From: an uncultured Candidatus Saccharibacteria bacterium
GTDB lineage: Bacteria > Patescibacteriota > Saccharimonadia > CAILAD01 > CAZGYV01
Reading direction: 5' to 3'
DNA length: 55,235 nt
Assembly: GCA_964530725.1 (NCBI GenBank)
Contig: CAZGYV010000004.1
Span: forward strand, 1-55,235
Shown: positions 4,462 through 48,495 of the stretch, one piece after another
How positions within the stretch are numbered: the stretch's first letter is position 1
Layout of the letters: every line of letters begins with the position of its first letter
Translations under genes and position numbers: made by a program
The notes under the pieces: generated by a model
Databases searched by the model: none
What the model saw: only the letters and a program-made list of their open reading frames with translations
What the model was told of the DNA's origin: nothing

Positions 4462-7386
4462 CTATTTAATCGAGCAAAAAATCATGAAGCACTGAGTGGT
4501 GGCCGTAGTAATTGCCGGAGCTGTCGCATTGCCGTTCTGACTGATACCTACGATACTCATAGTGTATGTAGTGTCGTTCTTTAGACCTCCAGGTTGAGGG
4601 CCGTAATATTTATAATTAGTGCCGCTGCCATTCGTGCTGCCCACCAAGCTTTCAATCGAGTTAAGCTTATTATCTCTAGCAAACACCAAGTAATTGTTGG
4701 CCTGAACGCCGCCGCTCTGCCAGGATAGATCGAGATAGTATTTACCTTGTATCCAGTCAAAGGCTAGGACGCGCTGCAAGCCACTGACGGTCAATGGCGG
4801 TTCGACTGGTGGTGGCGTTGGTGTAGGTAAAGGAGTAGGAGCGACTGTTGGGGTCGGGGTCGGAGCAGGAGTCGACGAAGGCGTAGCTGTTGGTGTTGGA
4901 GTTGGAGTCGACTGCGCCTTAGGGCATTGATTAGCGAAATTGGTGATCTGCGCAGCCAACATATCTTTGTGCGCACCTGAGAAGCTAGGTAAATATACTT
5001 CCACGAAAGTAGCTTTTGGCTCGGTCAATAGATGATCATAAACCTCATCCCAATTATCCCGATCGCCGACGTCAAACATTTGCATACCATGTGGCAACGG
5101 CTGGCTGACAGTCACCGGCTTGCCAAATCCATAGCTGGGATTACCCAAACCATTACCTTGAACGAATATCTTTTGGGTGCGGTTGGCTGCGGTCGAGCCT
5201 GATTTTTGAATCATGTAATTAATTAACTCGCCACCACGATAGTCCCGATTAGTGCCCTCGCCCCAGTGACCTGACATCGGAAATTCAACCGCCAGATCAT
5301 CACCTGCGTATTTTAGAGCAATATCAACCAGTCTTTTGTGCCCCTCCAACCACGCATCGCGATTATAGCCAGGCGCACTGCGGACGTATTGGTTGTCAAT
5401 TTCATCCCACAAATAGCCATACCACGACATGTGCATCATGCGCACGCCATTGGCCCTTGACCAAGCGGCCAATTTAGCGACATGTTGCTCGTAAGCTTTC
5501 TCAAACTCTGGATTGCCGGCCGCACCAGCCGGACTAAATGGCACTGGCACTCTTTCGCTTGACTCAACCGTGCCGTTTTTGTTCAGATCGGACAAGTAGT
5601 AATAGCCGCCATTATTGTAAACTGACTGCGGTGTATAGCGAGCTGCCATAAAGCGCGGTGTAAATGATTTATTTTTTGCTTTGGCCATAGCCATACCTTG
5701 ATCGTACGGCGTCATAGTGGTCTCGACGTCACGCCACGGATAGCGCAGCGATAGTCCACGCACGCTGGTAGTGCTGAGGGCAGAATTCAAACCTGTTGAG
5801 ACATCGGCTAGCTTCTTACCGCCATCGCCGCCACCTGTGCTAATCTGCTGGAGCACCCAAGTGCCGCAAAGCAGATCGCTATTTGTCTGACTACTTGGTT
5901 TAGGTGTTGGAGTCGGGGTCGAAGTCGGCGTTGGGGTTGGGGTTGGCGTAGTTGTAGTCGTTGAAACAGTAGAAACAAGCTGGGGTTTGTATTTTGCCAA
6001 AGTATCATAAATCACTTTAGCGCCGTCTTTCTTGTCTTGGGTGTAGTTATTATAAGCGGCAGTTTTGCGATCATAATTTATGGCCGCGCTGAAGTCTGTG
6101 TTATAAACCTCAACATAAGAAGCCTTGAGGTCAACCGCGTTTTTTATCGTCTGATCAAAATTAGCGTTAGAAATACACGAAGCGCTGTTGCAAAACGGCT
6201 CGGTTCCACCCACCGTCTGATAGCCAATCACGCCACGATTCGCGCTATTAGCGGCTTTCTCGCTCCAATTGTCGCTAATCCACTTGATCATTTTATTGGT
6301 ATAAACGGCATCGTTGGCATAGGATGGGCCTAAACCATTGAATTGAATAAACCAGCCTCGCTTATTAGGTGTCATGTTGCCGTAGCCACCGTAATTTTGG
6401 CGGGCATGAGCATAAAACTTCGTGTTTTCGGTATTATCATTATCACAAGCACCGAGACCGGTACCGACAGCCATCGGCTGAGTGTCGCCGAAGCTATTGG
6501 CAAAAGTGCTTAGCAGATAGCCTTTCAAGAATTTGGTATATTCATCCTGTAAAATTTGGGTTGAGGCAGCATTATTGCCATCCGTCGCGATCGATTTGCC
6601 AAAATCTCGATTATATAGCTCAAACCATTTACTTTTTTGATTGGTCGGACAAAACGGCAAGAAATTCTCACCAAACACCTTGTATGGCCCGGTCAACATG
6701 GCCGTAACATTGGCTCGGTTGCCATAGCGAGCACCCATGGCGCTGACAAAATCTTTCCAGTCGGCTTGGAATGACTGATCCCAGAAAAGCGGAATAAAGG
6801 CTTGATACTGAGTGCCAGTTTTATTATCGGAATCCTGCCAGGTGTAGAATTTTGCCCCAGGTCGGCTCTGTCCGTTGGGGCGCGTGCCGCCACACCAAAC
6901 GTTTAGCGGTATCTGGTCTTTCACCCCATCACTATCAGTTGTTTGGGTGCAATTTATCGGACTAGCCGCCCCGACCGGAGCTCTAGACTGGCCGATAATT
7001 ACGCGCATCAGCAAATTTTTCGGTTTGCCGCCATTGGCATTTTTGACCTCAGCCGATTCGAGCGCTGCTAATGTCTGATCAATTTTAGTCCAATTATAAG
7101 TACCGTCATCATTCTGGACATCGTTCCAATAAAGTCCGGCCATACCCCAGCCAGCCACAAGCGGGTGAGTAATGTTACTCTTGTCAGTCGCATTCGGTAC
7201 GCCGCCGAACATATAATAGCCCTTAAACTCAGTCGGTGTCGCCGAGGCACGACTAAATAGTATGACAAACCCAAGTACCACCAAGCCAACAGCCAACACC
7301 AGCGTGGCAGCTAGACTAAACTTGGGGTTATTTTTAATCTTTTGCAGTGAACCGACCCGCGCCTTCTTAGTCTTTGTATTTGCCAT
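4462..7386 (-). CDS. membrane-anchored giant surface protein (974 aa) with two TIM-barrel-glycosidase-like domains, Pro/Thr linkers and a C-terminal FN3-like domain
   Basis: MANTKTKKAR followed by a TM anchor. Each large domain opens with a W-x-D/V-E...Y-D/NW string (LYWNDVQNDDGTYNWTKID; LRYPWRDVETTMTPYD), as in GH42/GH35-like barrels; this functional call is weak. There are two PT linkers. Tail is QCFMIFCSIK. Confidence 0.75.
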   Translation of the reverse strand: MANTKTKKARVGSLQKIKNNPKFSLAATLVLAVGLVVLGFVILFSRASATPTEFKGYYMFGGVPNATDKSNITHPLVAGWGMAGLYWNDVQNDDGTYNWTKIDQTLAALESAEVKNANGGKPKNLLMRVIIGQSRAPVGAASPINCTQTTDSDGVKDQIPLNVWCGGTRPNGQSRPGAKFYTWQDSDNKTGTQYQAFIPLFWDQSFQADWKDFVSAMGARYGNRANVTAMLTGPYKVFGENFLPFCPTNQKSKWFELYNRDFGKSIATDGNNAASTQILQDEYTKFLKGYLLSTFANSFGDTQPMAVGTGLGACDNDNTENTKFYAHARQNYGGYGNMTPNKRGWFIQFNGLGPSYANDAVYTNKMIKWISDNWSEKAANSANRGVIGYQTVGGTEPFCNSASCISNANFDQTIKNAVDLKASYVEVYNTDFSAAINYDRKTAAYNNYTQDKKDGAKVIYDTLAKYKPQLVSTVSTTTTTPTPTPTPTSTPTPTPKPSSQTNSDLLCGTWVLQQISTGGGDGGKKLADVSTGLNSALSTTSVRGLSLRYPWRDVETTMTPYDQGMAMAKAKNKSFTPRFMAARYTPQSVYNNGGYYYLSDLNKNGTVESSERVPVPFSPAGAAGNPEFEKAYEQHVAKLAAWSRANGVRMMHMSWYGYLWDEIDNQYVRSAPGYNRDAWLEGHKRLVDIALKYAGDDLAVEFPMSGHWGEGTNRDYRGGELINYMIQKSGSTAANRTQKIFVQGNGLGNPSYGFGKPVTVSQPLPHGMQMFDVGDRDNWDEVYDHLLTEPKATFVEVYLPSFSGAHKDMLAAQITNFANQCPKAQSTPTPTPTATPSSTPAPTPTPTVAPTPLPTPTPPPVEPPLTVSGLQRVLAFDWIQGKYYLDLSWQSGGVQANNYLVFARDNKLNSIESLVGSTNGSGTNYKYYGPQPGGLKNDTTYTMSIVGISQNGNATAPAITTATTQCFMIFCSIK
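4795..4913 (-). repeat. low-complexity Pro/Thr-linker coding tract
   Basis: Encodes STPTPTPTATPSSTPAPTPTPTVAPTPLPTPTPPPVEPP. Confidence 0.6.
5890..5975 (-). repeat. low-complexity Thr/Pro-linker coding tract
   Basis: Encodes STVSTTTTTPTPTPTPTSTPTPTPKPSS. Confidence 0.6.
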
Positions 7387-14297: not shown

Positions 14298-14362
14298 GCG
14301 GGGTGGGACTATCCCACCCCGCCCCGACCAAAGATTTTAATATTTTAAAGTTTTTGGTCGGG
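14298..14362. terminator. tandem hairpins between convergent genes (bidirectional terminator candidate)
   Basis: An 11-bp GC-rich stem, gcggggtggga/tcccaccccgc (14298-14322), followed by a 10-bp stem, cccgaccaaa/tttggtcggg (14323-14362), with A/T runs on both sides. Confidence 0.65.
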
Positions 14363-33787: not shown

Positions 33788-35434
33788 GTGTCAGACAAAA
33801 TTGAACAAATCAAAAGTTTTTTCCAGGGCGAAGTCCTAACCGATCAGAAGACCCGCTCGACCTACAGCCACGACACCAGCCTGTTTGAGGTCACGCCCGA
33901 GGCAGTGCTTTTCCCCAAGGACATCACCGATGTCAAAGAGCTGGTCAAATTCGTCGCCAAAAATAAAACTGACAACCCCGATCTGTCGATCACAGCTCGA
34001 TCGGGTGGCACTGACATGTCCGGCGGCGCGATCAACGACTCGCTGATCTTGGTCTTTGAGCGCCATTTCAAGCACATCGGACCTGTCCGCGGCGATCGGA
34101 TCAACGCCCAGCCGGGTGTCTATTACCGAGATTTTGAGCCGGTCACGCTGCGGCACAAAAGACTGATGCCTTCTTACCCGGCCTCGCGCGGCATTTGTGC
34201 TCTCGGCGGCATCGTGGCTAATAATTCGGGGGGCGAGAAATCCTTAGCTTATGGCAAGACGGAGAATTATGTCGCTAGTCTGAAAGTCGTGCTCGCAGAC
34301 GGCGAGGAGTACAAAGTCAAGCCGCTCAAAGGCGAGGCATTGCAGAAAAAATTAGCCCAAAAAGATTTCGAAGGTAAAATCTACCGCCAGATTTTCGACC
34401 TAGTCGATAAAAATTATGATTTGCTAAAATCCTCCAAGCCGCGAGTCAGCAAAAACTCGACCGGCTACCTGCTCTGGGATATCTACGATCGCGAAACTGG
34501 CGTCTTTGATCTGACCAAGCTTTTCATCGGCGCTCAAGGCACGCTGGGGCTTGTCACCGATATCGAATTCAAGCTGGTCGAGGCCCAGCCGCACTCCGGG
34601 CTGCTGGTCGCGTATCTACCTAATCTCGACCACCTCGGCGACATCATCAAGACGGTCGTGGCCACGAGACCAACAAGTTTTGAGACCTTCGACGATCACA
34701 CTTTCGGCCTGGCGATTCGCTTCTTCCCGACTTTCCGCAAGACGCTTGGCTGGCGCGAATTTATCAAGCTGGCGCTGTCGCTGATTCCCGACGTGTTGAT
34801 GCTGTATAAAGGCATGCCCAAGCTCATCATGCTGGTCGAATACGAGGGCAAAAACACCGCCGAGATCAAAGTCAAGCTCGACAGCTTGCGCGAAGTGCTC
34901 GAGCCCTTTGACATGGCCACCCAAGAGGCCGAGACCGAGGCCAAGAGCAAGAAATACTGGCTGATGCGTCGTGAGAGCTTTAATCTGCTGCGCAAAAATG
35001 TCAAAAACAAGCACACCGCGCCGTTCATCGACGATCTGGTGGTGCCGCCCGAGCACATGCCCGAATTCCTGCCCAAATTACGTCCGATCCTCGAAAAATA
35101 CGACCTGCTCTATACCATCGCCGGCCACATGGGCGATGGCAATTTCCACATCATCCCCTTGATGGATCTGACCAAAAAATCAGAGCGCGACAAGATCACC
35201 AAGTGCATGGAGGAAGTCGATGATCTGGTGATTTCATTCAAGGGCAGCTTGTCGGGCGAGCACAACGACGGACTGATTCGCGGGCCGTTTCTCTCGCACA
35301 TGTACCCGCCCAAAGTGATTAAATTATTCCGTGACGCCAAGCACATCCTCGATCCGCACAATATTTTCAATCCGCACAAGAAAGTCGACGCCCGCTGGGA
35401 CTGGTCGTACCGCCACATGCGCGACCATTTTTAG
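33788..35434 (+). CDS. FAD-binding (PCMH-type) oxidase, GlcD/D-lactate dehydrogenase-like
   Basis: 548 aa. GTG start. RSGGTDMSGG FAD-binding string and C-terminal GSLSGEHNDG, typical of FAD-linked oxidases. Confidence 0.75.
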   Translation: MSDKIEQIKSFFQGEVLTDQKTRSTYSHDTSLFEVTPEAVLFPKDITDVKELVKFVAKNKTDNPDLSITARSGGTDMSGGAINDSLILVFERHFKHIGPVRGDRINAQPGVYYRDFEPVTLRHKRLMPSYPASRGICALGGIVANNSGGEKSLAYGKTENYVASLKVVLADGEEYKVKPLKGEALQKKLAQKDFEGKIYRQIFDLVDKNYDLLKSSKPRVSKNSTGYLLWDIYDRETGVFDLTKLFIGAQGTLGLVTDIEFKLVEAQPHSGLLVAYLPNLDHLGDIIKTVVATRPTSFETFDDHTFGLAIRFFPTFRKTLGWREFIKLALSLIPDVLMLYKGMPKLIMLVEYEGKNTAEIKVKLDSLREVLEPFDMATQEAETEAKSKKYWLMRRESFNLLRKNVKNKHTAPFIDDLVVPPEHMPEFLPKLRPILEKYDLLYTIAGHMGDGNFHIIPLMDLTKKSERDKITKCMEEVDDLVISFKGSLSGEHNDGLIRGPFLSHMYPPKVIKLFRDAKHILDPHNIFNPHKKVDARWDWSYRHMRDHF

Positions 35435-35477
35435 AGAAAGACTTTCTAAACTCCCCTCTTCGTAATACTATTAAATT

Positions 35478-37067
35478 ATGAAGAAATGGCTGCCGGTCAT
35501 CATCCTAGCTTGTGCGCAGTTTATCATGGTGCTCGATAGCACGGTGATGAATGTCTCGATCTCGGCCGTCGTCAAAGACCTGAACACATCCGTGTCGGCT
35601 CTGCAGGCCGCCATCACTTTTTACACCCTGACGATGGCCGCGCTGATGCTAACAGGCGGCAAACTGGGCGATATCTTAGGTCGCCGCCGAGCTTTTGTGA
35701 TCGGCTCGATCATCTACGCGGTCGGCTCGTTTATCACTGCCATTAGCCCCAATATCGGCACGCTTTTTGCTGGCTGGTCGATCGTCGAAGCCCTGGGCGC
35801 TATCTTGGTCATCCCGGCCATCGCGGCTTTGGTGGCGATGAATTACACCGGTCGTGATCGAGTGGTGGCTTACGCCATAATCGGTGGCATTTCCGGCGCG
35901 GCAGCGGCCGCCGGACCTCTGATCGGCGGCGCTATGACGACGTATTTGTCGTGGCGCTACGTCTTCTTGGCCGAGACCGTCATCATGGCAATCGTGCTTT
36001 TATTCGTCAAATTGATCGCCGACAAAAGCAAGCCGTCGAGTCTTGCGATCGACTGGCCAAGCGTCGGGCTCTCAGTCGTCGGCATGACGATGCTGGTCTT
36101 TGGCCTTTTGCAAAGCAAGACTTGGGGCTGGATCACACCGATCAACACGCCGCAAATCAATGGCCGGGCGATCGCACCGCTAGGGATATCGCTGGTGGCC
36201 TATCTTCTGATCGGCGGGGCGGCGATCCTGTGGCTGTTTTACCGCCGCTGTCAAAAGCTCGAGGCGACGGGGCGTAATCCACTGCTTTCCGTCTCGATGC
36301 TCTCAATCCCCAGTCTGCGCTCGGGTGTCTCATCTCTAGCCGGCCAATACCTGATCACGGCGGCGATTTTCTTCGTCATCCCGATCTATCTGCAGATGCT
36401 GCTCGGACTCGATGCCCTTGAGACTGGCATGAAGATCTTGCCGCTGTCGATCGCTGTCATCATCGCCTCGATGGGCGGCTCGCGGCTGATCAACAAATAT
36501 TCGCCCAAGCAAGTCGTCCGGCTCGGCCAGCTCGCCCTGGTGGCGGGAGCTTTCTTGCTGATCGGCGCTATCAATCCGCAGCTTAAGGGTTTTGCATTTG
36601 GCCTTGGCATGTTCATCGTCGGCACCGGGCTGGGGCTGCTGGCATCGCAGCTCGGCAACGTCATCATGTCCTCGGTACCGGAGAAATTATCCAGTGAAGC
36701 GGGCGGCACTTCGGGAACAGCTCAGAACCTCGGCTCTTCGCTCGGCACGGCTCTCATCGGCTCGATCATGCTCGCCAGTCTAGCCGGCCAATTCGCGGCG
36801 ACCGTCAATGCCAGCCCCGACATTCCGCAAAATGTCAAAACTACCATTAGTCAAAATGCCAAAGCCAAGATCCAAATCGTGCCAATCGCGGAAGTCCCGG
36901 CCATCGCTCAAGAAGCCGGCCTTGACCTTGATCAAGCTCAAGCCGTAGCCGATGCCTATGCCACCGCCCAGGTCGGAGCCTTGAAAAAATCAATGTTTTT
37001 TATCGCCGTTTTGGCCCTACTGATGATCGGCGTGTCGCGCTTTATCCCCAATAAAAAACTCACCTAA
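35478..37067 (+). CDS. MFS transporter, DHA2 (EmrB/QacA, 14-TM) type
   Basis: 529 aa. LDSTVMNVSI.., GKLGDILGRRR motif A, about 14 TM helices. Confidence 0.8.
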   Translation: MKKWLPVIILACAQFIMVLDSTVMNVSISAVVKDLNTSVSALQAAITFYTLTMAALMLTGGKLGDILGRRRAFVIGSIIYAVGSFITAISPNIGTLFAGWSIVEALGAILVIPAIAALVAMNYTGRDRVVAYAIIGGISGAAAAAGPLIGGAMTTYLSWRYVFLAETVIMAIVLLFVKLIADKSKPSSLAIDWPSVGLSVVGMTMLVFGLLQSKTWGWITPINTPQINGRAIAPLGISLVAYLLIGGAAILWLFYRRCQKLEATGRNPLLSVSMLSIPSLRSGVSSLAGQYLITAAIFFVIPIYLQMLLGLDALETGMKILPLSIAVIIASMGGSRLINKYSPKQVVRLGQLALVAGAFLLIGAINPQLKGFAFGLGMFIVGTGLGLLASQLGNVIMSSVPEKLSSEAGGTSGTAQNLGSSLGTALIGSIMLASLAGQFAATVNASPDIPQNVKTTISQNAKAKIQIVPIAEVPAIAQEAGLDLDQAQAVADAYATAQVGALKKSMFFIAVLALLMIGVSRFIPNKKLT

Positions 37068-37098
37068 GACCTGCCAGGTAAGTTTTTTAATTTACTAA

Positions 37099-37353
37099 CT
37101 AGCCGAGTAGCTTGGCTTTTTGAGCCGCGAACTCTTCCTCGGTCAAGATGCCTTGATCGCGAAGACCGGCTAGCTTTTGCAATTGCTCGACCATGTCATC
37201 GCCGCCAGCAGCGGGCGCGGCCGGAGCGGGGGCTTGAGCTTGCTCCTCGGCCGCCCAGCGATTGGCTTGACGACGTGAGACTCGATTTGATACAGCAGTG
37301 GCGGTACCGGCTACAACAGCCGTTCGCGCCATACCTCGTAAAAGTCCTGGCAT
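37099..37353 (-). CDS. SHOCT-domain protein
   Basis: 84 aa. C-terminal LQKLAGLRDQGILTEEEFAAQKAKLL is the SHOCT signature. Confidence 0.75.
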   Translation of the reverse strand: MPGLLRGMARTAVVAGTATAVSNRVSRRQANRWAAEEQAQAPAPAAPAAGGDDMVEQLQKLAGLRDQGILTEEEFAAQKAKLLG

Positions 37354-37355
37354 GA

Positions 37356-37775
37356 TTATTCTCCTTTCTCGTTATCTAACTCAGCAGTAGCGTCGGGGTG
37401 GATCCGCCCTTCGGCCACCAGCACGCCATTGGCATCCAAGATGGCTTTTTTGAGTGGTTTCGCCCAGAGCTGCTCGACCGCCAAAAGGCCAGCCGCAGTG
37501 TTGTTTTCCAGCAGCTCCGCCATCTCATCGATGTCATCCGCGTCTACCAGATCCGAATCGCCTTTGTATTTTTTCACAAACGTGGCAGCGTACTCATCGC
37601 CCAGATCGGCAATATTTAATTTTTCGACATTGCCGTCTTTGTCTTTGACGATCGCAGCCAAGGCCACTAGGGCAATAACACCGTCATCTATCGCTCCGGC
37701 GATCGCCTTTAAGATACTGCCATCGAATTTATTGCCTTCGAAGCCAACAATAATATAATCAATCGGTCCGCGCAT
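37356..37775 (-). CDS. hypothetical protein (DUF6325-like partner of SHOCT genes, tentative)
   Basis: 139 aa, acidic. Lies 2 nt upstream of the SHOCT gene, with GAGGAGG before the ATG. Confidence 0.6.
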   Translation of the reverse strand: MRGPIDYIIVGFEGNKFDGSILKAIAGAIDDGVIALVALAAIVKDKDGNVEKLNIADLGDEYAATFVKKYKGDSDLVDADDIDEMAELLENNTAAGLLAVEQLWAKPLKKAILDANGVLVAEGRIHPDATAELDNEKGE

Positions 37776-37859
37776 AACCTGCCTCCTCTGTTATTAATAC
37801 TACCCACTTGATGTTATTATCTCACGCAACAGCCATCCGCGCGAGTTATCGTCGCTAGT

Positions 37860-38450
37860 GCCCCTCGAACGGTAACGGGGCGTTAGAACACAAGCTTTAT
37901 CGTTCGAGCATACATGAGAATCTCCCTCCCCATCACCCTTAACTCGTTTCAGTATCTACTTCTTTTCTTTCTGAAAGGCTTCGCCTTTCATGGGTTTGAC
38001 ACTTTTGATGAGCAAAAGTGTCGCAAAACTCACGACCAGGACACAAACACTGAGTAAGAATAGCTGCTTGGCAGTCTAGTTCTCACAAACTCATCCCGAT
38101 AAATCGGGATTCAAACATGTTCGAACTTTCGCTTACAGCGAACCGACTGCCAAGCAGCTATTCTCTTCCGGTTTGCTTTATGGTCGAAATAATAAATTCA
38201 ATAATGTATTTATTCCGAGCCTTGGAGTGAGATAGAAAGGCAGGAGTAGGATTGGTAGCGGTCCGCTGCAAGAGCGGACGGCGAGGACTGTTTGAAGCTC
38301 GATTTGTTAAAATCGAGCGAGTTCCGCAGCCGAACTGTCAATTCTAACTCTTGCCGCTTCTCACTCGAACGACGGCTCGAGGCTTTGGCGCCACCTTTCT
38401 AGAAAGGTGGCAAATGAATTGAAAGGCGAAGCCTTTCAAAGGAAAGCAGT
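37860..38450. ncRNA. candidate large ornate structured RNA or palindrome-rich DNA element, unclassified
   Basis: Sits in a 730-nt ORF-free gap. At least 9 perfect helices, including a 19-bp long-range stem (38058-38076/38145-38163) that forms a three-way junction. Recurring CTCGAACG octamers. Details are in the findings. Two possible G-U pairs favour the plus strand. Confidence 0.3.
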
Positions 38451-38505
38451 TCTCGTCGATCTACGGCCTCCTCGAACGGCACGGGACTCTCGAATTATAC
38501 CGTCA

Positions 38506-39786
38506 TTAGTACGGGCTGTGGGCCGGTGTATGCGAGCTGGCAGGATCTTTGCCGGAATCACCCAGTGGCTTGATTATATCCGGCTGCTTATCACCCTCGA
38601 CTTCAAGAATGGCCCACGCGCCTTTGTTCATGCGCGCTAAGGCGTGATCGACCAGGGTGTATTTGCCGGGTGCGTCGAGCCTGAACTCGACGATGGTCGC
38701 CCCGCCGGCTGGCACGATCGTCGACTGGACATTTTTGAATACCGCCGAGCCGGGGCCCATGGCCGCCTCTGGATAAACGGTGTCGAATATTTCGCCAATG
38801 ACGTGGAAGCTGGAGATGAGATTGACCCCGCCATTGCCGACATACATGCGCACCCTATCCCCCACTTTGGCCTTCATGCGCGGCGTGGTTTCGATTCGAC
38901 CATTAAACGTCACATAAGTCGGATTGCCGTCCAAAAGCGCCTGCGGATCAAAAGCCAGCAGACCCTTTTTGCCAATACCACCGCTTGTGTAGAGCTCGCC
39001 CTGGACGATGTAGAATTCTTTGTCGACTTTGGCCATGCCCTCTTTGGGCTCGACCAAGATCAGGCCGTACTGGCCGTGCGAATTGTGCACTGAGACATTT
39101 GACGTGGCGCAGTGATAGATGTAGAGCCCCGGCGCGAGCGCTTTCCACGCAAAGCCCTTGGTCTCGCCAGGTGCGACGTTGGTCAACACCGCCCCGCCGC
39201 CCGGTCCGGTGACCGAGTGGAGATCGATGTTGTGGCTATGCAGGCTAGATTTGTCATTGGTGATCGTCGCCTCGACCATGTCCCCTTCGCGCACCCGCAG
39301 CATTGGTCCGGGCACTTGATCGTTAAACGTCCAGTAATTGTTATAAATGCCCTTGGCCACCTCGGCGATGACTTCTTTGGTAGTAAATGAAATCTTCACC
39401 GTCTCAGGCGTTTTGCGGGTGATCGGAGCGGGCACGGCATTGGGATCAGCGCCGATATCATCAATGCGCTCGAATTTCTTAGACTGGGTCAGAAAATCCC
39501 ATAGATTAACCAGCGGTAGTGAGGGCGGATTTTGATCGGAAGCGGCCGAGTGCATAGTCGGCGGCATGGCAAAATGCAACGGATACGGGAAGCGGCCATA
39601 GATGACTAGACCAGCCGCCACAAGCAGCAGTACGACCAGCCCGACACCCAGGAAAGCCTTTTTGCCGGTAAATAATTTTTTCCGCACCCAGCGCCAGGCG
39701 CCCAGCCGAAAGAGTATCAATACCGCCGCGCCGGCTAGCAAAGCCCAGCCGATTATTTCCAATATTAAATATTTGTACATACCCAC
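38506..39786 (-). CDS. nirK: copper-containing nitrite reductase (NirK-like) with an N-terminal membrane anchor
   Basis: 426 aa. HSHNIDLHSVTGPGGGA, YIYHCATSNVSVHNSHGQYGLILVEP and SSFHVIGEIFD align by eye with the canonical NirK HNIDFH / YHCAP..H....M / FHVIG motifs. Two TM helices in the first ~70 aa. Confidence 0.8.
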   Translation of the reverse strand: MGMYKYLILEIIGWALLAGAAVLILFRLGAWRWVRKKLFTGKKAFLGVGLVVLLLVAAGLVIYGRFPYPLHFAMPPTMHSAASDQNPPSLPLVNLWDFLTQSKKFERIDDIGADPNAVPAPITRKTPETVKISFTTKEVIAEVAKGIYNNYWTFNDQVPGPMLRVREGDMVEATITNDKSSLHSHNIDLHSVTGPGGGAVLTNVAPGETKGFAWKALAPGLYIYHCATSNVSVHNSHGQYGLILVEPKEGMAKVDKEFYIVQGELYTSGGIGKKGLLAFDPQALLDGNPTYVTFNGRIETTPRMKAKVGDRVRMYVGNGGVNLISSFHVIGEIFDTVYPEAAMGPGSAVFKNVQSTIVPAGGATIVEFRLDAPGKYTLVDHALARMNKGAWAILEVEGDKQPDIIKPLGDSGKDPASSHTPAHSPY

Positions 39787-39915
39787 TCCCTGAATAATAA
39801 AATGCTTATGTATTTATTATAGCACTTGGCCCAAAACTTTATTTAATCCTTTTCTTTTGATCACAAATCTGATATATATAAGTCGGCACTTTGAGCCCAC
39901 AACAAAAGGAGCAGG

Positions 39916-40272
39916 ATGAATGTGCGTGTGACCTGTCCGGACTGTGGCGACCTAATAATCAATGCCCGTGACATGCTTGTGACCACCAACACTGACACCG
40001 GGCAAGCCAGTGTTAGCTTCAAGTGCAATCAATGTGGTTGCCGCTCAACCCGCGAGATCGCAGAAAAGATACTGCGAAATCTAATCAAGGCGGGTACGCC
40101 TTCTCGTACCTGGCACTGGCCGGCAGAACTGTCAGAACCGCGACCAGAGGGCAAGCCACTCAACCGAGCTGATCTCATCGACTTCCACCAAGCACTGTTA
40201 AGCGAGAGGTGGGTCGAGGCAAGTATGCGTGAATGTCGCGCCACTGCTAAGAAGTTCGAAACCAAACAATGA
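39916..40272 (+). CDS. hypothetical zinc-ribbon protein (118 aa)
   Basis: CPDCGD...CNQCGC four-Cys ribbon, AAGGAG Shine-Dalgarno, own terminator. Confidence 0.55.
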   Translation: MNVRVTCPDCGDLIINARDMLVTTNTDTGQASVSFKCNQCGCRSTREIAEKILRNLIKAGTPSRTWHWPAELSEPRPEGKPLNRADLIDFHQALLSERWVEASMRECRATAKKFETKQ

Positions 40273-40299
40273 CTGCGGGCTTACCGCGGTCACGTCTTA

Positions 40300-40333
40300 A
40301 AGGGCCTGGGGAAATCCAGGCCCTTGCCTTTTA
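40300..40333 (+). terminator. rho-independent terminator
   Basis: aagggcctgg / ccaggccctt 10-bp stem with a 6-nt loop, followed by gccTTTTa. Confidence 0.65.
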
Positions 40334-40363
40334 TGTAGTTGCCACAAAAAATAGTAAACTCGA

Positions 40364-41362
40364 CTAGCCAAATATAATCATAAAGGTCGAGCCTTTATTG
40401 ACCGTGCTCTTAACTTGCAATTGCGCCTTGTGCAGCTTGGCGATTTTTTGCGCGATCGACAAACCCAAACCGTGCCCATCAATATCATTTTTCGAACGCG
40501 ACCTATCGGAGCGGTAAAAACGCTCAAAAATATGTGCCCGATCAGCCTCTGCAATCCCAACACCCTCATCACGCACCGATATGACAACTTTGCGCGCGTT
40601 AGTACCAGCATGGATAAAAACTTTTCCGCCCGGCGGCGAGTATTTTATGGCATTATCAAGCAAAATCACTACTAGCTCCACCAGGCTAACTAAATTACCC
40701 GTCACAACATGTGAGCGCTTGGAAGTATTAGTCAGCTCTACTCCCTTGTGCTTAGCAACGGCAGCCACCTGACTGAGCGCTCGTGCTAAAATCTGGTCCG
40801 TTTGTACCGACTCCAATGGCAGCTCACCATCGATTCGGGCAAGTTTGAGTAAGCCGTCAGACAGGGCGGTCAACTTACTCAGTTCCTCCAGGTTGCTTTT
40901 CAATAAATCGAGAGCCTGCGCCCGACTAAGCTTGGGGTCACGCAAAGCCACCTCAATCTCGGTTTGCATAGCAGCGATTGGTGTACGCAGCTCATGGCTA
41001 GCATCGGCGCTAAAACGCGACTGAGCATCGTGAGCTTCTTCGATCGGTTGTAAAGTTTTGCGAGCCAGCAGATAGCTAGCAAGACCGCCAATAACTAAAA
41101 TCACTATATTGGTGTTAATCAGGTTAAAAACAATATGCGCTCTGGCCTCAGACAATTGCTGCTCGCGCATTTTGATAGTCTGCGGGTCGTGCATGATACC
41201 GCGAAAACGTGGCGTGTTATCGAGCAAGGCAATCTGACCCATCATGGTATTGGTAATTTCACTATTAGCCGCCCGATAAATATTGAGGCTAAAAAACAGG
41301 CTAATAACCATGATGATTACCAAGTATATGCCAGTCAACTTTAAAGTGGCCGAAGTAAACAT
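40364..41362 (-). CDS. sensor histidine kinase
   Basis: 332 aa. Two TM helices, H-box FSADASHELRTPI, and a HATPase region with DNAIKYS, DEGVGI, GHGLGLSI. Confidence 0.88.
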   Translation of the reverse strand: MFTSATLKLTGIYLVIIMVISLFFSLNIYRAANSEITNTMMGQIALLDNTPRFRGIMHDPQTIKMREQQLSEARAHIVFNLINTNIVILVIGGLASYLLARKTLQPIEEAHDAQSRFSADASHELRTPIAAMQTEIEVALRDPKLSRAQALDLLKSNLEELSKLTALSDGLLKLARIDGELPLESVQTDQILARALSQVAAVAKHKGVELTNTSKRSHVVTGNLVSLVELVVILLDNAIKYSPPGGKVFIHAGTNARKVVISVRDEGVGIAEADRAHIFERFYRSDRSRSKNDIDGHGLGLSIAQKIAKLHKAQLQVKSTVNKGSTFMIIFG

Positions 41363-41365
41363 AAT

Positions 41366-42043
41366 CTATTTTGTTCCAAATTTATAGCCAAAACCACGCT
41401 GGGTGCGAATGAGCGCCGGACCTTCGAATGGTTTGTCTATTTTGCCGCGTAAGTAGCCGATGTAGACCTCGACCGTATTGGGCAATATATCGGCGTCATA
41501 ATCCCAGACATGGGCGATAATATTTTCTTTTGTTAAAATCCGATCGGGATTGCGCATCATGTACTCGAGTAGCGCGAATTCTTTGCTGGTCAAATTGACT
41601 AATCGACCGGACCGCTTAACGGTAAAATTCACCGGGTCGAGCACAAGATCGGCGTATTGCAGTTCGCTTCCTTGGCTCTCCGGCGCGCGGCGCAAGAGAG
41701 CCCGGATACGTGCCAACAGCTCGGTAAAGGCGAATGGCTTGACTAAGTAATCATCAGCCCCCATATTAAGCCCCTCCACGCGATCGACAATCTGATCTTT
41801 GGCCGTCAGAAAAAGTACCGGCGTGTGAATGTTCGCTAGGCGCATCCGCTTCAAAATACCAACCCCATTCACTTCGCCGGGCAGCATGCGGTCAAGCACC
41901 ACCACGTCATATTCTTCATCTAGCGCCATAGCCAGCCCCTCATCTCCATCATAAGCCACGTCAACGGCGAATTTTTCCTGGACAAGACCCTTCTTGATGG
42001 CATTAGCGATCTTGTGCTCATCCTCCACGACTAAGATTCTCAT
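41366..42043 (-). CDS. OmpR-family response regulator
   Basis: 225 aa. Receiver domain (MRILVVEDE..., VVLDRMLPG, KPF) and winged-helix domain (LTSKEFALLEYMM, RGFGYKF). Confidence 0.9.
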   Translation of the reverse strand: MRILVVEDEHKIANAIKKGLVQEKFAVDVAYDGDEGLAMALDEEYDVVVLDRMLPGEVNGVGILKRMRLANIHTPVLFLTAKDQIVDRVEGLNMGADDYLVKPFAFTELLARIRALLRRAPESQGSELQYADLVLDPVNFTVKRSGRLVNLTSKEFALLEYMMRNPDRILTKENIIAHVWDYDADILPNTVEVYIGYLRGKIDKPFEGPALIRTQRGFGYKFGTK

Positions 42044-42086
42044 AACTTAAAATATACACTATTTAGGCTGATAAATAGCTTAAAAA

Positions 42087-42902
42087 TCAAACCGATATAT
42101 CGCGCCGACTGAATGCAACTGCCCCAACAACAGCCGATGCGATAGCCAGCCCACCCAATACCGCCATCGAGACCATATCTAGCTCGCCCTTGACCAACGC
42201 GTCGCTAGGTACGTAGTAATTAAAAATCGAAGCGTATTTGAGCTTTTCAGCCGACTCGACCAGGCCAGAGACTACATTGATCACGTACATCGCCAAAAGT
42301 CCGCCGCCAATCACAAAGTAAACTGTACTGCGCTCACTGACGAAACTCGCTACCATAAACCCGACCGATACGATGGCCCAGCCGAACAAAAAGCTCAAAA
42401 AACCCACCCGCCAGAAATTAGCCGCGTTAAAATCTACGTCAGTAATCTGGGCAATCGGAAAAACCACCAAGATCGAGGCAACGCAAAACAGCAGCAATAT
42501 AACCAATCCGGCCGTGTACTTCGACCAATACAACTTCAGTCGAGTCAGCGGCAACGATAATAGTACGGCCATCGTGCCCTTCTCGATCTCGCCGGCAATA
42601 GTTGAGCCAGCGTAAGACAGCATCAAAAGTATCACCATGATTGGCCAAACAAAACTAAAATGTTCAGCCGCGATGTAGCCCTCGAGAGTGCTAATCTGCA
42701 GCTCCTCGATATTAAAAGCCTCGAGCAAGGCCTTAGGGTAAGCCTCTAAAAGTTCGTTGAATTTAGCCGATTCCTTCTGAAAACTTGGAAAGATGCCAAT
42801 ATACATCCAGACAAAAGCCGCTGCTATTACACAGTAAGCCAAGATCGACCAGCGTTTGATGCGTAGCTCTTTGCGAATGGCCGCTAAATACTGCTGGTTC
42901 AT
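42087..42902 (-). CDS. ABC-2-type exporter permease
   Basis: 271 aa, 6 TM helices. 4-nt overlap with the ATPase gene. Confidence 0.7.
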   Translation of the reverse strand: MNQQYLAAIRKELRIKRWSILAYCVIAAAFVWMYIGIFPSFQKESAKFNELLEAYPKALLEAFNIEELQISTLEGYIAAEHFSFVWPIMVILLMLSYAGSTIAGEIEKGTMAVLLSLPLTRLKLYWSKYTAGLVILLLFCVASILVVFPIAQITDVDFNAANFWRVGFLSFLFGWAIVSVGFMVASFVSERSTVYFVIGGGLLAMYVINVVSGLVESAEKLKYASIFNYYVPSDALVKGELDMVSMAVLGGLAIASAVVGAVAFSRRDISV

Positions 42903-43774
42903 TGGTAGAACCTCATAAATACGTCCTCCAAACTAGCGTGACTAATATCTATGTCACGTATCGGATGGCGCAGCAGACGCGTGAGCAGAACGTTCAAGTC
43001 GCCATGGACATGCAATTCCAACTCCTTCTTAGAGCTGCTTTTGATGTCAACTTTGTCAATTTGGTAGTCACGGATATTATAAGTGGTCGCGAAAACAACT
43101 TTGACAATATGCATTTGCATACCACGTACACTTTGCATGCTTTCACTGGCAACAATCTTACCTTCACGAATTATTCCCACCCGATCGCAAATCTGCTCCA
43201 CTTCGGCCAAATTGTGCGACGACATAAAAACAGTCTTACCCTCACGACGTAATTCGCGTAGAATCGAGTAAATTTCTTGCTGTAAGATTGGGTCAAGGCC
43301 GCGCGTTGGCTCGTCAAGGACCAAAAGATCAGGCTCGTGCATCAGCGCCAACACCAGGGCGAGCTTCTGCTTGTTGCCAGAAGACAAATGGCGAACCTTG
43401 GGCCGCAAGTCCAGATCAAATCGACTGACTAATTGATCGGCCACGCCGCGACTGCCGTGCATCGTCGCGATGAACTTAATGTGCGCATTGCCACTCCAAT
43501 TGCCATACAGCACACTATCGGCCGAGAGAAAACCGATCTTATTTTTGTAGTTAATATCAAGTCGGTCAAGCGGCTTACCGAATAATTTCACCGCCCCGCC
43601 AGTGGGCCGTATAAAATCCATCAGGCAGCGAATCGTAGTTGTCTTACCGGCCCCGTTTGGCCCCAGAAATCCGAAAATCTGACCTTTTTCAACCACCATC
43701 GAGACATTATCGAGTGCCAATTTGCTACCAAATTGTTTGGAAACTTTTTTTAGCTCGATGATCGCGGCTGCCAT
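42899..43774 (-). CDS. ABC transporter ATP-binding protein
   Basis: Walker A GPNGAGKTT, signature LSSGNKQK, Walker B LLVLDEPT. Confidence 0.9.
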   Translation of the reverse strand: MAAAIIELKKVSKQFGSKLALDNVSMVVEKGQIFGFLGPNGAGKTTTIRCLMDFIRPTGGAVKLFGKPLDRLDINYKNKIGFLSADSVLYGNWSGNAHIKFIATMHGSRGVADQLVSRFDLDLRPKVRHLSSGNKQKLALVLALMHEPDLLVLDEPTRGLDPILQQEIYSILRELRREGKTVFMSSHNLAEVEQICDRVGIIREGKIVASESMQSVRGMQMHIVKVVFATTYNIRDYQIDKVDIKSSSKKELELHVHGDLNVLLTRLLRHPIRDIDISHASLEDVFMRFYQ

Positions 43775-48420: not shown

Positions 48421-48495
48421 TGGCTGGGACGGAAGGGGTCGAACCTTCGATCTCCTGAGCCAGAATCAGGCGCCTTACCACTTGGCCACGTCCCA
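48421..48495 (-). tRNA. tRNA-Gln (anticodon CUG), CCA encoded
   Basis: Reverse complement is TGGGACG-TG-GCCA-AGTGGTAA-GGCG-CCTGA-TTCTGGC-TCAGG-AGATC-GAAGG-TTCGACC-CCTTC-CGTCCCA-G-CCA. It folds as a full cloverleaf and is very similar in layout to E. coli tRNA-Gln. Confidence 0.92.

Follow-up and report, generated by a model that had tools for sequence, protein, structure and literature searches.

The non-coding island between nirK and the DUF6325-SHOCT operon is an old, diverged inverted duplication of a unit of about 235 nt, centred on an AT-rich hairpin at 38191-38214. This duplication, together with the compensatory upkeep of its helices, is a new finding beyond the first-pass annotation, which had marked positions 37776-38505 of the window (the whole 55,235-nt stretch analysed here) as a hairpin-dense region and had suggested either a large structured RNA or a young palindromic DNA element. 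As the best explanation, we tentatively regard the island as a horizontally acquired, dyad-symmetric, non-coding foldback DNA element, the hairpins of which act in single-stranded form.

Locus and strain-specific occurrence

According to a Pfam scan, the window is core chromosome of a Saccharibacteria (CPR) bacterium, the phylum being indicated by the names of the sources of DUF6325 homologues, and carries uvrA/B/C, pentose-phosphate and glycolytic genes, ribonucleotide reductase, trmD and rpsP. On one side, the island is bounded by the end of a gene for a nirK-type multicopper oxidase (stop codon at 38506, minus strand), and on the other by the start of the DUF6325-SHOCT pair (37775, minus strand); as annotated before, it contains no ORF of at least 60 aa. 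Two parts have to be distinguished:

37826..38505, no strand: strain-specific non-coding segment of 680 nt, taking the place of a 35-nt spacer of same-species contigs
37776..37825, minus strand: conserved DUF6325 leader and promoter outside the element, with the extended -10-like TGAGATAAT and a GGAGG ribosome-binding site

The closest homologue of the DUF6325 gene (98% identity) was found on four contigs, L001-L004, which display the gene order nirK, DUF6325, SHOCT, MFS and a gap of only 85 nt between nirK and DUF6325. Homology to these contigs halts at the nirK stop codon (38506) and restarts at 37825, just upstream of the conserved TGAGATAAT and the ribosome-binding site, and the 35 nt of L001-L004 that the 680 nt replace are unrelated to them. 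The segment is thus a strain-specific indel at a recombination junction, and the earlier suggestion of an insertion is borne out by the same-species contigs lacking it. Its GC content of about 46% is some ten points below the 55-58% of the flanks. The limits first assigned to the island hold for 37826-38505, but not for the leader, which shows 96% identity over 50 nt in L001-L004 (blastn) and reads TGAGATAAT on the minus strand directly upstream of DUF6325. Likewise, the plus-strand extended -10 element TGtTATTAT noted before is present, but sits inside this conserved leader.

Towards nirK, the flank is 98.8% identical to that of L001, and towards DUF6325/MFS it is 94.8% identical. L003 shares the DUF6325-side allele with L001 and has 91.7% identity towards nirK, L004 having 95.8% there; the DUF6325/MFS side is uniform (94.4-94.8%) across the same-species contigs. 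Because identity shifts across it, the nirK/DUF6325 junction is a recombination breakpoint in the population. Homology to L001 ends again at 35477, where the window has a FAD-linked oxidase gene (33788-35434) and L001 a different minus-strand gene. A mosaic of identities was noted over 35477-43420 of the window against L001-L004 and L034-L036, and from these sequence comparisons recombination among strains appears frequent there. No target-site duplication was detected at the flanks, the nirK end included, the best flank-to-flank match not being significant (p ~0.06). Nothing of the relatives' 35-nt spacer survives, so that the event was not a simple transposition into that site.

Remoter relatives (L005-L008, L029-L033) carry no nirK at this position and reveal a 127-130-aa membrane-like hypothetical gene instead; we rejected the segment as a decayed remnant of that gene, as tblastn gave no similarity. 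In this species, a response regulator, a histidine kinase, a 118-aa gene and nirK lie between an ABC-2 permease gene and DUF6325 (38506-42043), the remoter relatives having their two-component pair downstream of DUF6325-SHOCT. Since the placement of this block differs among relatives, nirK is part of a lineage-specific rearrangement or acquisition. Between the convergent 118-aa and histidine kinase genes, a perfect 10-bp hairpin (40300-40325) is kept in relatives (L001 3096-3121); it falls inside a 32-aa ORF annotated by gene callers, which is thus probably no gene but a bidirectional terminator. Elsewhere in the window, a 974-aa ORF without Pfam match (4462-7386, minus strand) adjoins an 803-aa protein with a fibronectin-III domain, and both may be large surface proteins.

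Architecture of the element

The element comprises two arms about a short AT-rich centre, with further repeats at the flanks:

37863..37908, no strand: left-flank hairpin, CTCGAACGGTAA with TTATCGTTCGAG, 12 bp, one G.T, 21-nt loop
37959..38190, no strand: left arm U_L, consisting of hairpin a, hairpin b and T-shaped domain D1
37972..37990, no strand: hairpin a, TGAAAGGC-TTC-GCCTTTCA, exact reverse complement of hairpin i
37991..38032, no strand: hairpin b, 10 bp at 37998-38022 plus a 7-bp extension with one G.T
38033..38186, no strand: domain D1, a T-shaped three-way junction, outer stems starting with 38033-38 paired to 38181-86
38057-38076 with 38145-38164: long stem of D1, 20 bp, 100% complementary
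38093-38110 and 38128-38142: inner hairpins c and d of D1
38191..38214, no strand: AT-rich hairpin e, dyad centre of the whole element
38215..38449, no strand: right arm U_R, inverted paralogue of U_L, consisting of domain D2, hairpin h and hairpin i
38216..38379: domain D2, a T-shaped junction with stems 38216-21/38374-79 and 38225-32/38359-66
38239-57 with 38336-55: main stem of D2, 19 bp, four G.T on the plus strand
38258-38282 and 38297-38318: inner hairpins f and g of D2
38390..38411, no strand: hairpin h, perfect 22-nt palindrome, paralogue of b with three compensatory pair changes
38419..38439, no strand: hairpin i, 9 bp, GAA loop, core GCGAAGC
38470..38487, no strand: right-flank repeat CCTCGAACGGCACGGGAC, direct repeat of 37863-37880

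Every helix of the first-pass annotation was found where it had been placed, including the palindrome at 38390-38411 and the exact reverse complements 37972-37990 and 38420-38438. A long-range stem described as 19 bp exists as well, its true length being 20 bp (38057-38076 with 38145-38164). A pseudoknot proposed in addition could not be upheld, its partner 38348-54 being already engaged in the 19-bp helix with 38239-38257.

At the outer edges, the octamer CTCGAACG does occur in three direct copies and one inverted copy. CCTCGAACGGTAACGGGG forms the first 17-18 nt of the left-flank hairpin and is a direct repeat of 38470-38487; as the CTCGAACG core of CCTCGAACGGCACGGGAC is the inverted partner of 37901-37908, 38470-38487 marks the outer edge of the dyad. 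Four of the five copies of CTCGAACGR in the whole window fall inside the island, with 0.75 expected. The terminal inverted repeat, fully complementary at 37972-37990 and 38420-38438, extends with mismatches to 37959 and 38449 (~30 nt). On the minus strand, hairpin a reads GCGAAGC, a DNA mini-hairpin of unusually high stability that has been reported from sites of ssDNA priming and from the vicinity of IncQ ssiA (PMC13037366). Hairpin i read on the same strand (38439-38419) gives a 9-bp stem followed by TTCATTTG / TTCATTTGCC, a terminator-like arrangement 67 nt past the nirK stop codon, which resembles an intrinsic terminator as a consensus match only.

At 37884-37916 on the minus strand, a strong Shine-Dalgarno-like GGGGAGGGAG stands 6 nt ahead of an ATG, which starts a 10-codon mini-ORF (MYARTIKLVF) ending in a stop codon and crossing the 5' arm of the CTCGAACGR hairpin (37864-37908). 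It could be a leader-peptide-like arrangement or chance.

Inverted duplication and upkeep of the helices

For the pairs a/i, b/h and D1/D2 alike, the midpoint is located at 38203-38205, within hairpin e. Aligned semi-globally with the reverse complement of U_R, U_L scored 111, compared with 20.6 ± 7.0 (maximum 49) for shuffled sequences (z ~13) and 16 for the two arms in direct orientation. Folded separately, the arms share one architecture, namely a terminal hairpin of 8-9 bp, a second hairpin of 10-11 bp and a T-shaped domain with an outer and a long stem and a pair of inner hairpins. About 55% of the aligned arm columns are identical (~45% diverged), with no real difference between unpaired (57%) and paired (54%) positions.

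Among 51 homologous base pairs, 37 are unchanged, 11 differ in both partners with pairing retained, and three differ in one partner, in each case giving a G.T on the plus strand of U_R; neither arm has a broken pair. Seven of the 11 double-sided changes are of transversion type, so that a bias towards wobble intermediates is absent, and the main stems of D1 and D2 differ by insertions and deletions of whole pairs (register set by hand, helix by helix). Helices were matched by explicit coordinates; RNAalifold on a MAFFT alignment of the arms was set aside, the alignment being inconsistent with the structure. If the 14 changed pairs were random, each with a chance of about 0.375 of being canonical, the odds would be in the order of 1e-6; this is a rough inference, and the structure had been taken into account in choosing the register. 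Hairpins a and i at the two ends have remained perfect reverse complements of each other, even in their loops; set against the drift elsewhere, this suggests a conserved terminal repeat or a closing helix.

A diverged duplication with compensatory upkeep of its helices means that the structure was maintained and is not a chance pile-up of hairpins. As the arms are ~45% diverged and the host strains only 1-5%, the duplication must be far older than the presence of the segment here, and the segment therefore came from elsewhere. Of the earlier idea of a young palindromic element at the DNA level, the evidence leans towards the DNA part, but not towards its youth. An assembly artefact was rejected on account of the divergence of the arms and the collinearity of the flanks with relatives. 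Its two internal paralogues provide the island with built-in covariation evidence, normally missing in an orphan sequence, and with a seed for profile searches.

The same pattern might have arisen without selection, the island being a functionless relic of palindromic duplication by fold-back repair at a short AT-rich repeat, with stems tidied by template-switch (quasi-palindrome) correction and with transcriptional insulation or termination between nirK and DUF6325 as its sole present effect. A dyad centred on a short hairpin is expected for fold-back priming and is what we see; double changes without transition bias are the expected outcome if one stem arm is copied from its partner; and a single-copy, dispensable segment with no partner gene and a terminator-like hairpin after nirK would agree as well. 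Nevertheless, we consider such a relic unlikely, as mutation alone would have to keep some 50 pairs over ~45% divergence in two arms with none broken, along with the paired indels inside the main stem. The 19-nt end hairpins, exact even in the loop amid this drift, suggest constraint, and the origin of the first multi-hairpin unit would be left unexplained.

Folding strength and the case for RNA

The unusual hairpin density seen at first pass was confirmed by several measures. Six of the 16 perfect hairpins with a stem of at least 8 bp in the 55-kb window lie within 37972-38439 (~470 nt), and four of the five top windows in a GC-corrected scan of minimum free energy (MFE; 688 windows of 240 nt across 55 kb) belong to the island. 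The RNA MFE of the region is -278 kcal/mol on the plus strand (shuffles -197, z = -12.4) and -283 kcal/mol on the minus strand (shuffles -215, z = -11.5), with dinucleotide shuffles as the null, and the core folded as ssDNA reached z values of -13.2 and -13.9 for the two strands. Related loci from Saccharibacteria, about 100 kb in total, contain no comparable hairpin cluster. Next to the island, the scan ranks 13550-14365 as most structured. This stretch consists of two small ORFs (94 and 106 aa) followed by two tandem hairpins (14298-14322 and 14323-14362) and a convergent gene; it resembles ordinary terminators and has no sequence in common with the island.

A fold of this strength, found for the whole and for each arm separately (z of -12.5 and -10.1 for U_L, -8.6 and -6.8 for U_R), could belong to a structured RNA carried on a small acquired cassette, either as one multi-branched transcript of ~500-600 nt or as two ~235-nt paralogues on opposite strands (U_L minus, U_R plus) that diverge from the AT-rich centre. 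The multi-branched layout with three-way junctions would suit an RNA, as would the 11 compensatory pair changes with no pair broken and the restriction of all three one-sided changes to G.T on the plus strand of U_R. Situated between two same-strand genes, the island is probably transcribed, at least by read-through. Raw energies also point to the strands of the two-RNA arrangement, clearly for U_R (plus strand, -110.6 vs -93.8) and slightly for U_L (minus strand, -100.8 vs -98.9). However, the composition-corrected z-scores are better on the plus strand for both arms, which fits neither a divergent nor a convergent pair of genes, and with raw energies and z-scores in conflict, the strand assignment from G.U pairs and z-scores is contradictory.

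Further features speak against an RNA. Neither a U-tract terminator nor a convincing promoter bounds the element or either arm, and the island shows no surplus of promoter-like or terminator-like sites. Its helices are nearly devoid of wobble pairs or bulges and include a perfect 20-bp duplex and a loop-less palindrome; GNRA and UNCG loops, typical of RNA, are missing from its hairpins; unpaired positions are no better conserved than paired ones; and same-species strains dispense with it altogether. Against Rfam 15 at gathering thresholds, the whole window gave only a tRNA at 48424-48495, and with permissive filters (E up to 10) the region gave one spurious match of 11 bits (gathering score 86). 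ROOL, GOLLD, OLE, raiA and HEARO, some of which had been named as possible likenesses, did not reach their gathering scores in the region, and no match to group I/II introns, RNase P, tmRNA or tRNA was obtained there with Rfam models and ARAGORN, so that a known large RNA, as suggested before, was rejected. Taken together, we see a structured RNA as possible, though rather unlikely.

Searches for further copies and known sites

No second copy was found in the 55-kb window, whether by blastn (word size 7) or by an nhmmer profile of the two arms, and no further copy in ~100 kb of related loci. Plasmid and phage records showed no similarity (blastn, distant mode), and six exact patterns searched in IMG/VR viral contigs gave zero matches or chance 17-mers. 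The exact 19-mer of the end hairpin matched 17 times among GTDB representative genomes, in unrelated taxa and with the hairpin alone matching, and is therefore a generic hairpin word. An exact 20-mer of the stem matched two identical contigs in the JGI metagenomes by chance, within a coding gene. Such exact 19- and 20-mer scans detect near-identical copies and miss those below ~95% identity; with this sensitivity and a scope of 55 kb, 'single copy' has to be read as 'not shown to be repeated'. To this extent, the multi-copy occurrence predicted for a MITE or REP element was not observed, the tests made seeing near-identical copies only.

At the protein level, a 56-aa ORF and then the six-frame ORFs joined to 970 aa were compared with 5.8 billion protein clusters, giving nothing at E up to 10. 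Among the 50 ORFs of the window scanned against Pfam, no transposase, integrase, recombinase, HUH, RAYT, rep or primase gene was found. The island could be assigned to none of the families tested.

The 19-mer TGAAAGGCTTCGCCTTTCA also lies in a ~100-nt repeat of Natronomonas (L017 3542-3603, L023 90-149, L024 5410-5471), a haloarchaeal repeat family that is conserved in two scaffolds from the same genome and in a further Natronomonas MAG. Similarity to the window covers ~29 nt (93%) and is most likely a coincidence.

These searches also bear on a site of known type recognised by protein, such as the remnant of a plasmid or phage origin with paired ssi signals (cf. IncQ oriV ssiA/ssiB) or an invertible promoter flanked by hairpins a and i. 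Inverted hairpin modules on opposite strands about an AT-rich centre would fit an origin, the mini-hairpins with their GAA loop are similar to ssiA and to priming sites of the G4 type (PMC13037366), and the 19-nt perfect inverted repeat encloses 429 nt just upstream of an operon. Yet no tandem direct repeats (iterons) were found in the region, nor any gene for a Rep protein, primase or recombinase in the 55-kb window; the surroundings are core chromosome, and plasmid and phage records show no similarity, for which reasons we hold a site of known type to be very unlikely. A dif/Xer site in the AT-rich centre was considered separately and dropped, the XerD arm being missing by eye.

A proposed acquired foldback DNA element

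Returning to the foldback DNA element that we favour, an ancestral unit of ~235-290 nt, composed of two hairpins and a T-shaped three-way junction, gave rise to an inverted pair of copies on either side of a short AT-rich palindrome. These copies have since drifted to ~55% identity, paired substitutions keeping every helix. The hairpins presumably work in single-stranded nucleic acid, most likely ssDNA arising during replication, repair or natural transformation, and the end hairpins together with CTCGAACGR may be recognised by an enzyme whose gene lies elsewhere, for instance a transposase, HUH nuclease, recombinase or primase. Arrival at the locus would have occurred by recombination from a related donor and not by clean cut-and-paste transposition. 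As a side effect, the terminator-like hairpin after nirK may set this gene apart from the DUF6325-SHOCT operon.

Owing to the two-fold symmetry, both strands present the same hairpin series. Near-equal fold strength on both strands, the perfect 20-bp helix, the loop-less 22-nt palindrome, the seven transversion-type cases among the 11 double-sided changes, the lack of RNA-typical loops and the GCGAAGC of the end hairpins are signs of action at the DNA level; we lean towards this reading on the strength of the dyad symmetry, the equal strand energies and the loop-less perfect palindromes, which are compatible with RNA, too. Some observations do not sit easily with foldback DNA. The four G.T pairs of the U_R main stem all lie on the plus strand, which would suit an RNA or a single functional strand, and compensatory change suits RNA equally well as DNA. 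Moreover, one copy is known, without a significant target-site duplication and without a transposase-type gene in the window, and the ~45% divergence of the arms is unlike that of typical MITE copies.

A bolder view would take the ~235-nt unit as an undescribed class of structured nucleic acid in Patescibacteria, either an RNA pair on a mobile cassette or an ssDNA foldback spread by transformation and recognised by its structure, as integron attC sites are recognised by structure and not by sequence; this we offer as a doubtful proposal. To our knowledge, hardly any mobile or structured non-coding element has been described from Saccharibacteria or other CPR bacteria, which have tiny genomes and rely on DNA uptake. 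Helices preserved over ~45% drift in a segment that is nevertheless optional between strains point to an element that is selfish or accessory and whose function depends on its structure. If relatives exist, the choice between RNA and ssDNA and the partner enzyme become directly testable; if not, the island stays a curiosity at a recombination hot spot.

Comparison with known systems

T-shaped terminal hairpins are known from parvovirus ITRs and the telomere folds of Streptomyces, and the island resembles them in having a long stem around two small hairpins, in two inverted copies. In contrast to them, it is internal to a circular-type chromosome with no replicon between the copies, and the likeness is one of analogy only. 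With the ssiA/ssiB signals of IncQ oriV and with G4-type hairpins (PMC13037366), it shares inverted hairpins on opposite strands, a GAA-loop core and an AT-rich neighbour. Unlike the IncQ signals, it has neither iterons nor rep genes, is chromosomal, far larger and branched, and the resemblance comes without sequence similarity. Large ornate RNAs (ROOL, GOLLD, OLE, raiA, HEARO) are of the same size class, ORF-free, multi-branched and sometimes located on mobile DNA, whereas for the island neither a covariance-model match nor homologues were found, and it shows near-perfect helices, two-fold pseudo-symmetry and equal stability of its strands.

In kind, the island is closest to MITE- or REPIN-like palindromic elements. 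Bacterial MITEs and foldback palindromic repeats, e.g., Correia/CREE, ERIC and RUP, are matched in its being ORF-free and, by the gene ends, intergenic, in the conserved terminal inverted repeat, in the hairpins and in its presence or absence between strains. Unlike MITEs, it is single copy within the searches made, lacks a target-site duplication and a known parent IS, measures 490-680 nt as opposed to ~100-300 nt, and has arms that are ~45% diverged with local hairpins kept by compensation. REPINs and BIMEs are inverted REP doublets mobilised by RAYT HUH transposases. The island differs from them in a unit of ~235 nt with three helical modules (~25-40 nt for REPIN), not repeated in the window, and in the lack of a RAYT gene in the 55 kb, but it corresponds to them in being an inverted doublet of hairpin units, with a structure kept by paired changes and a presumed action as ssDNA.
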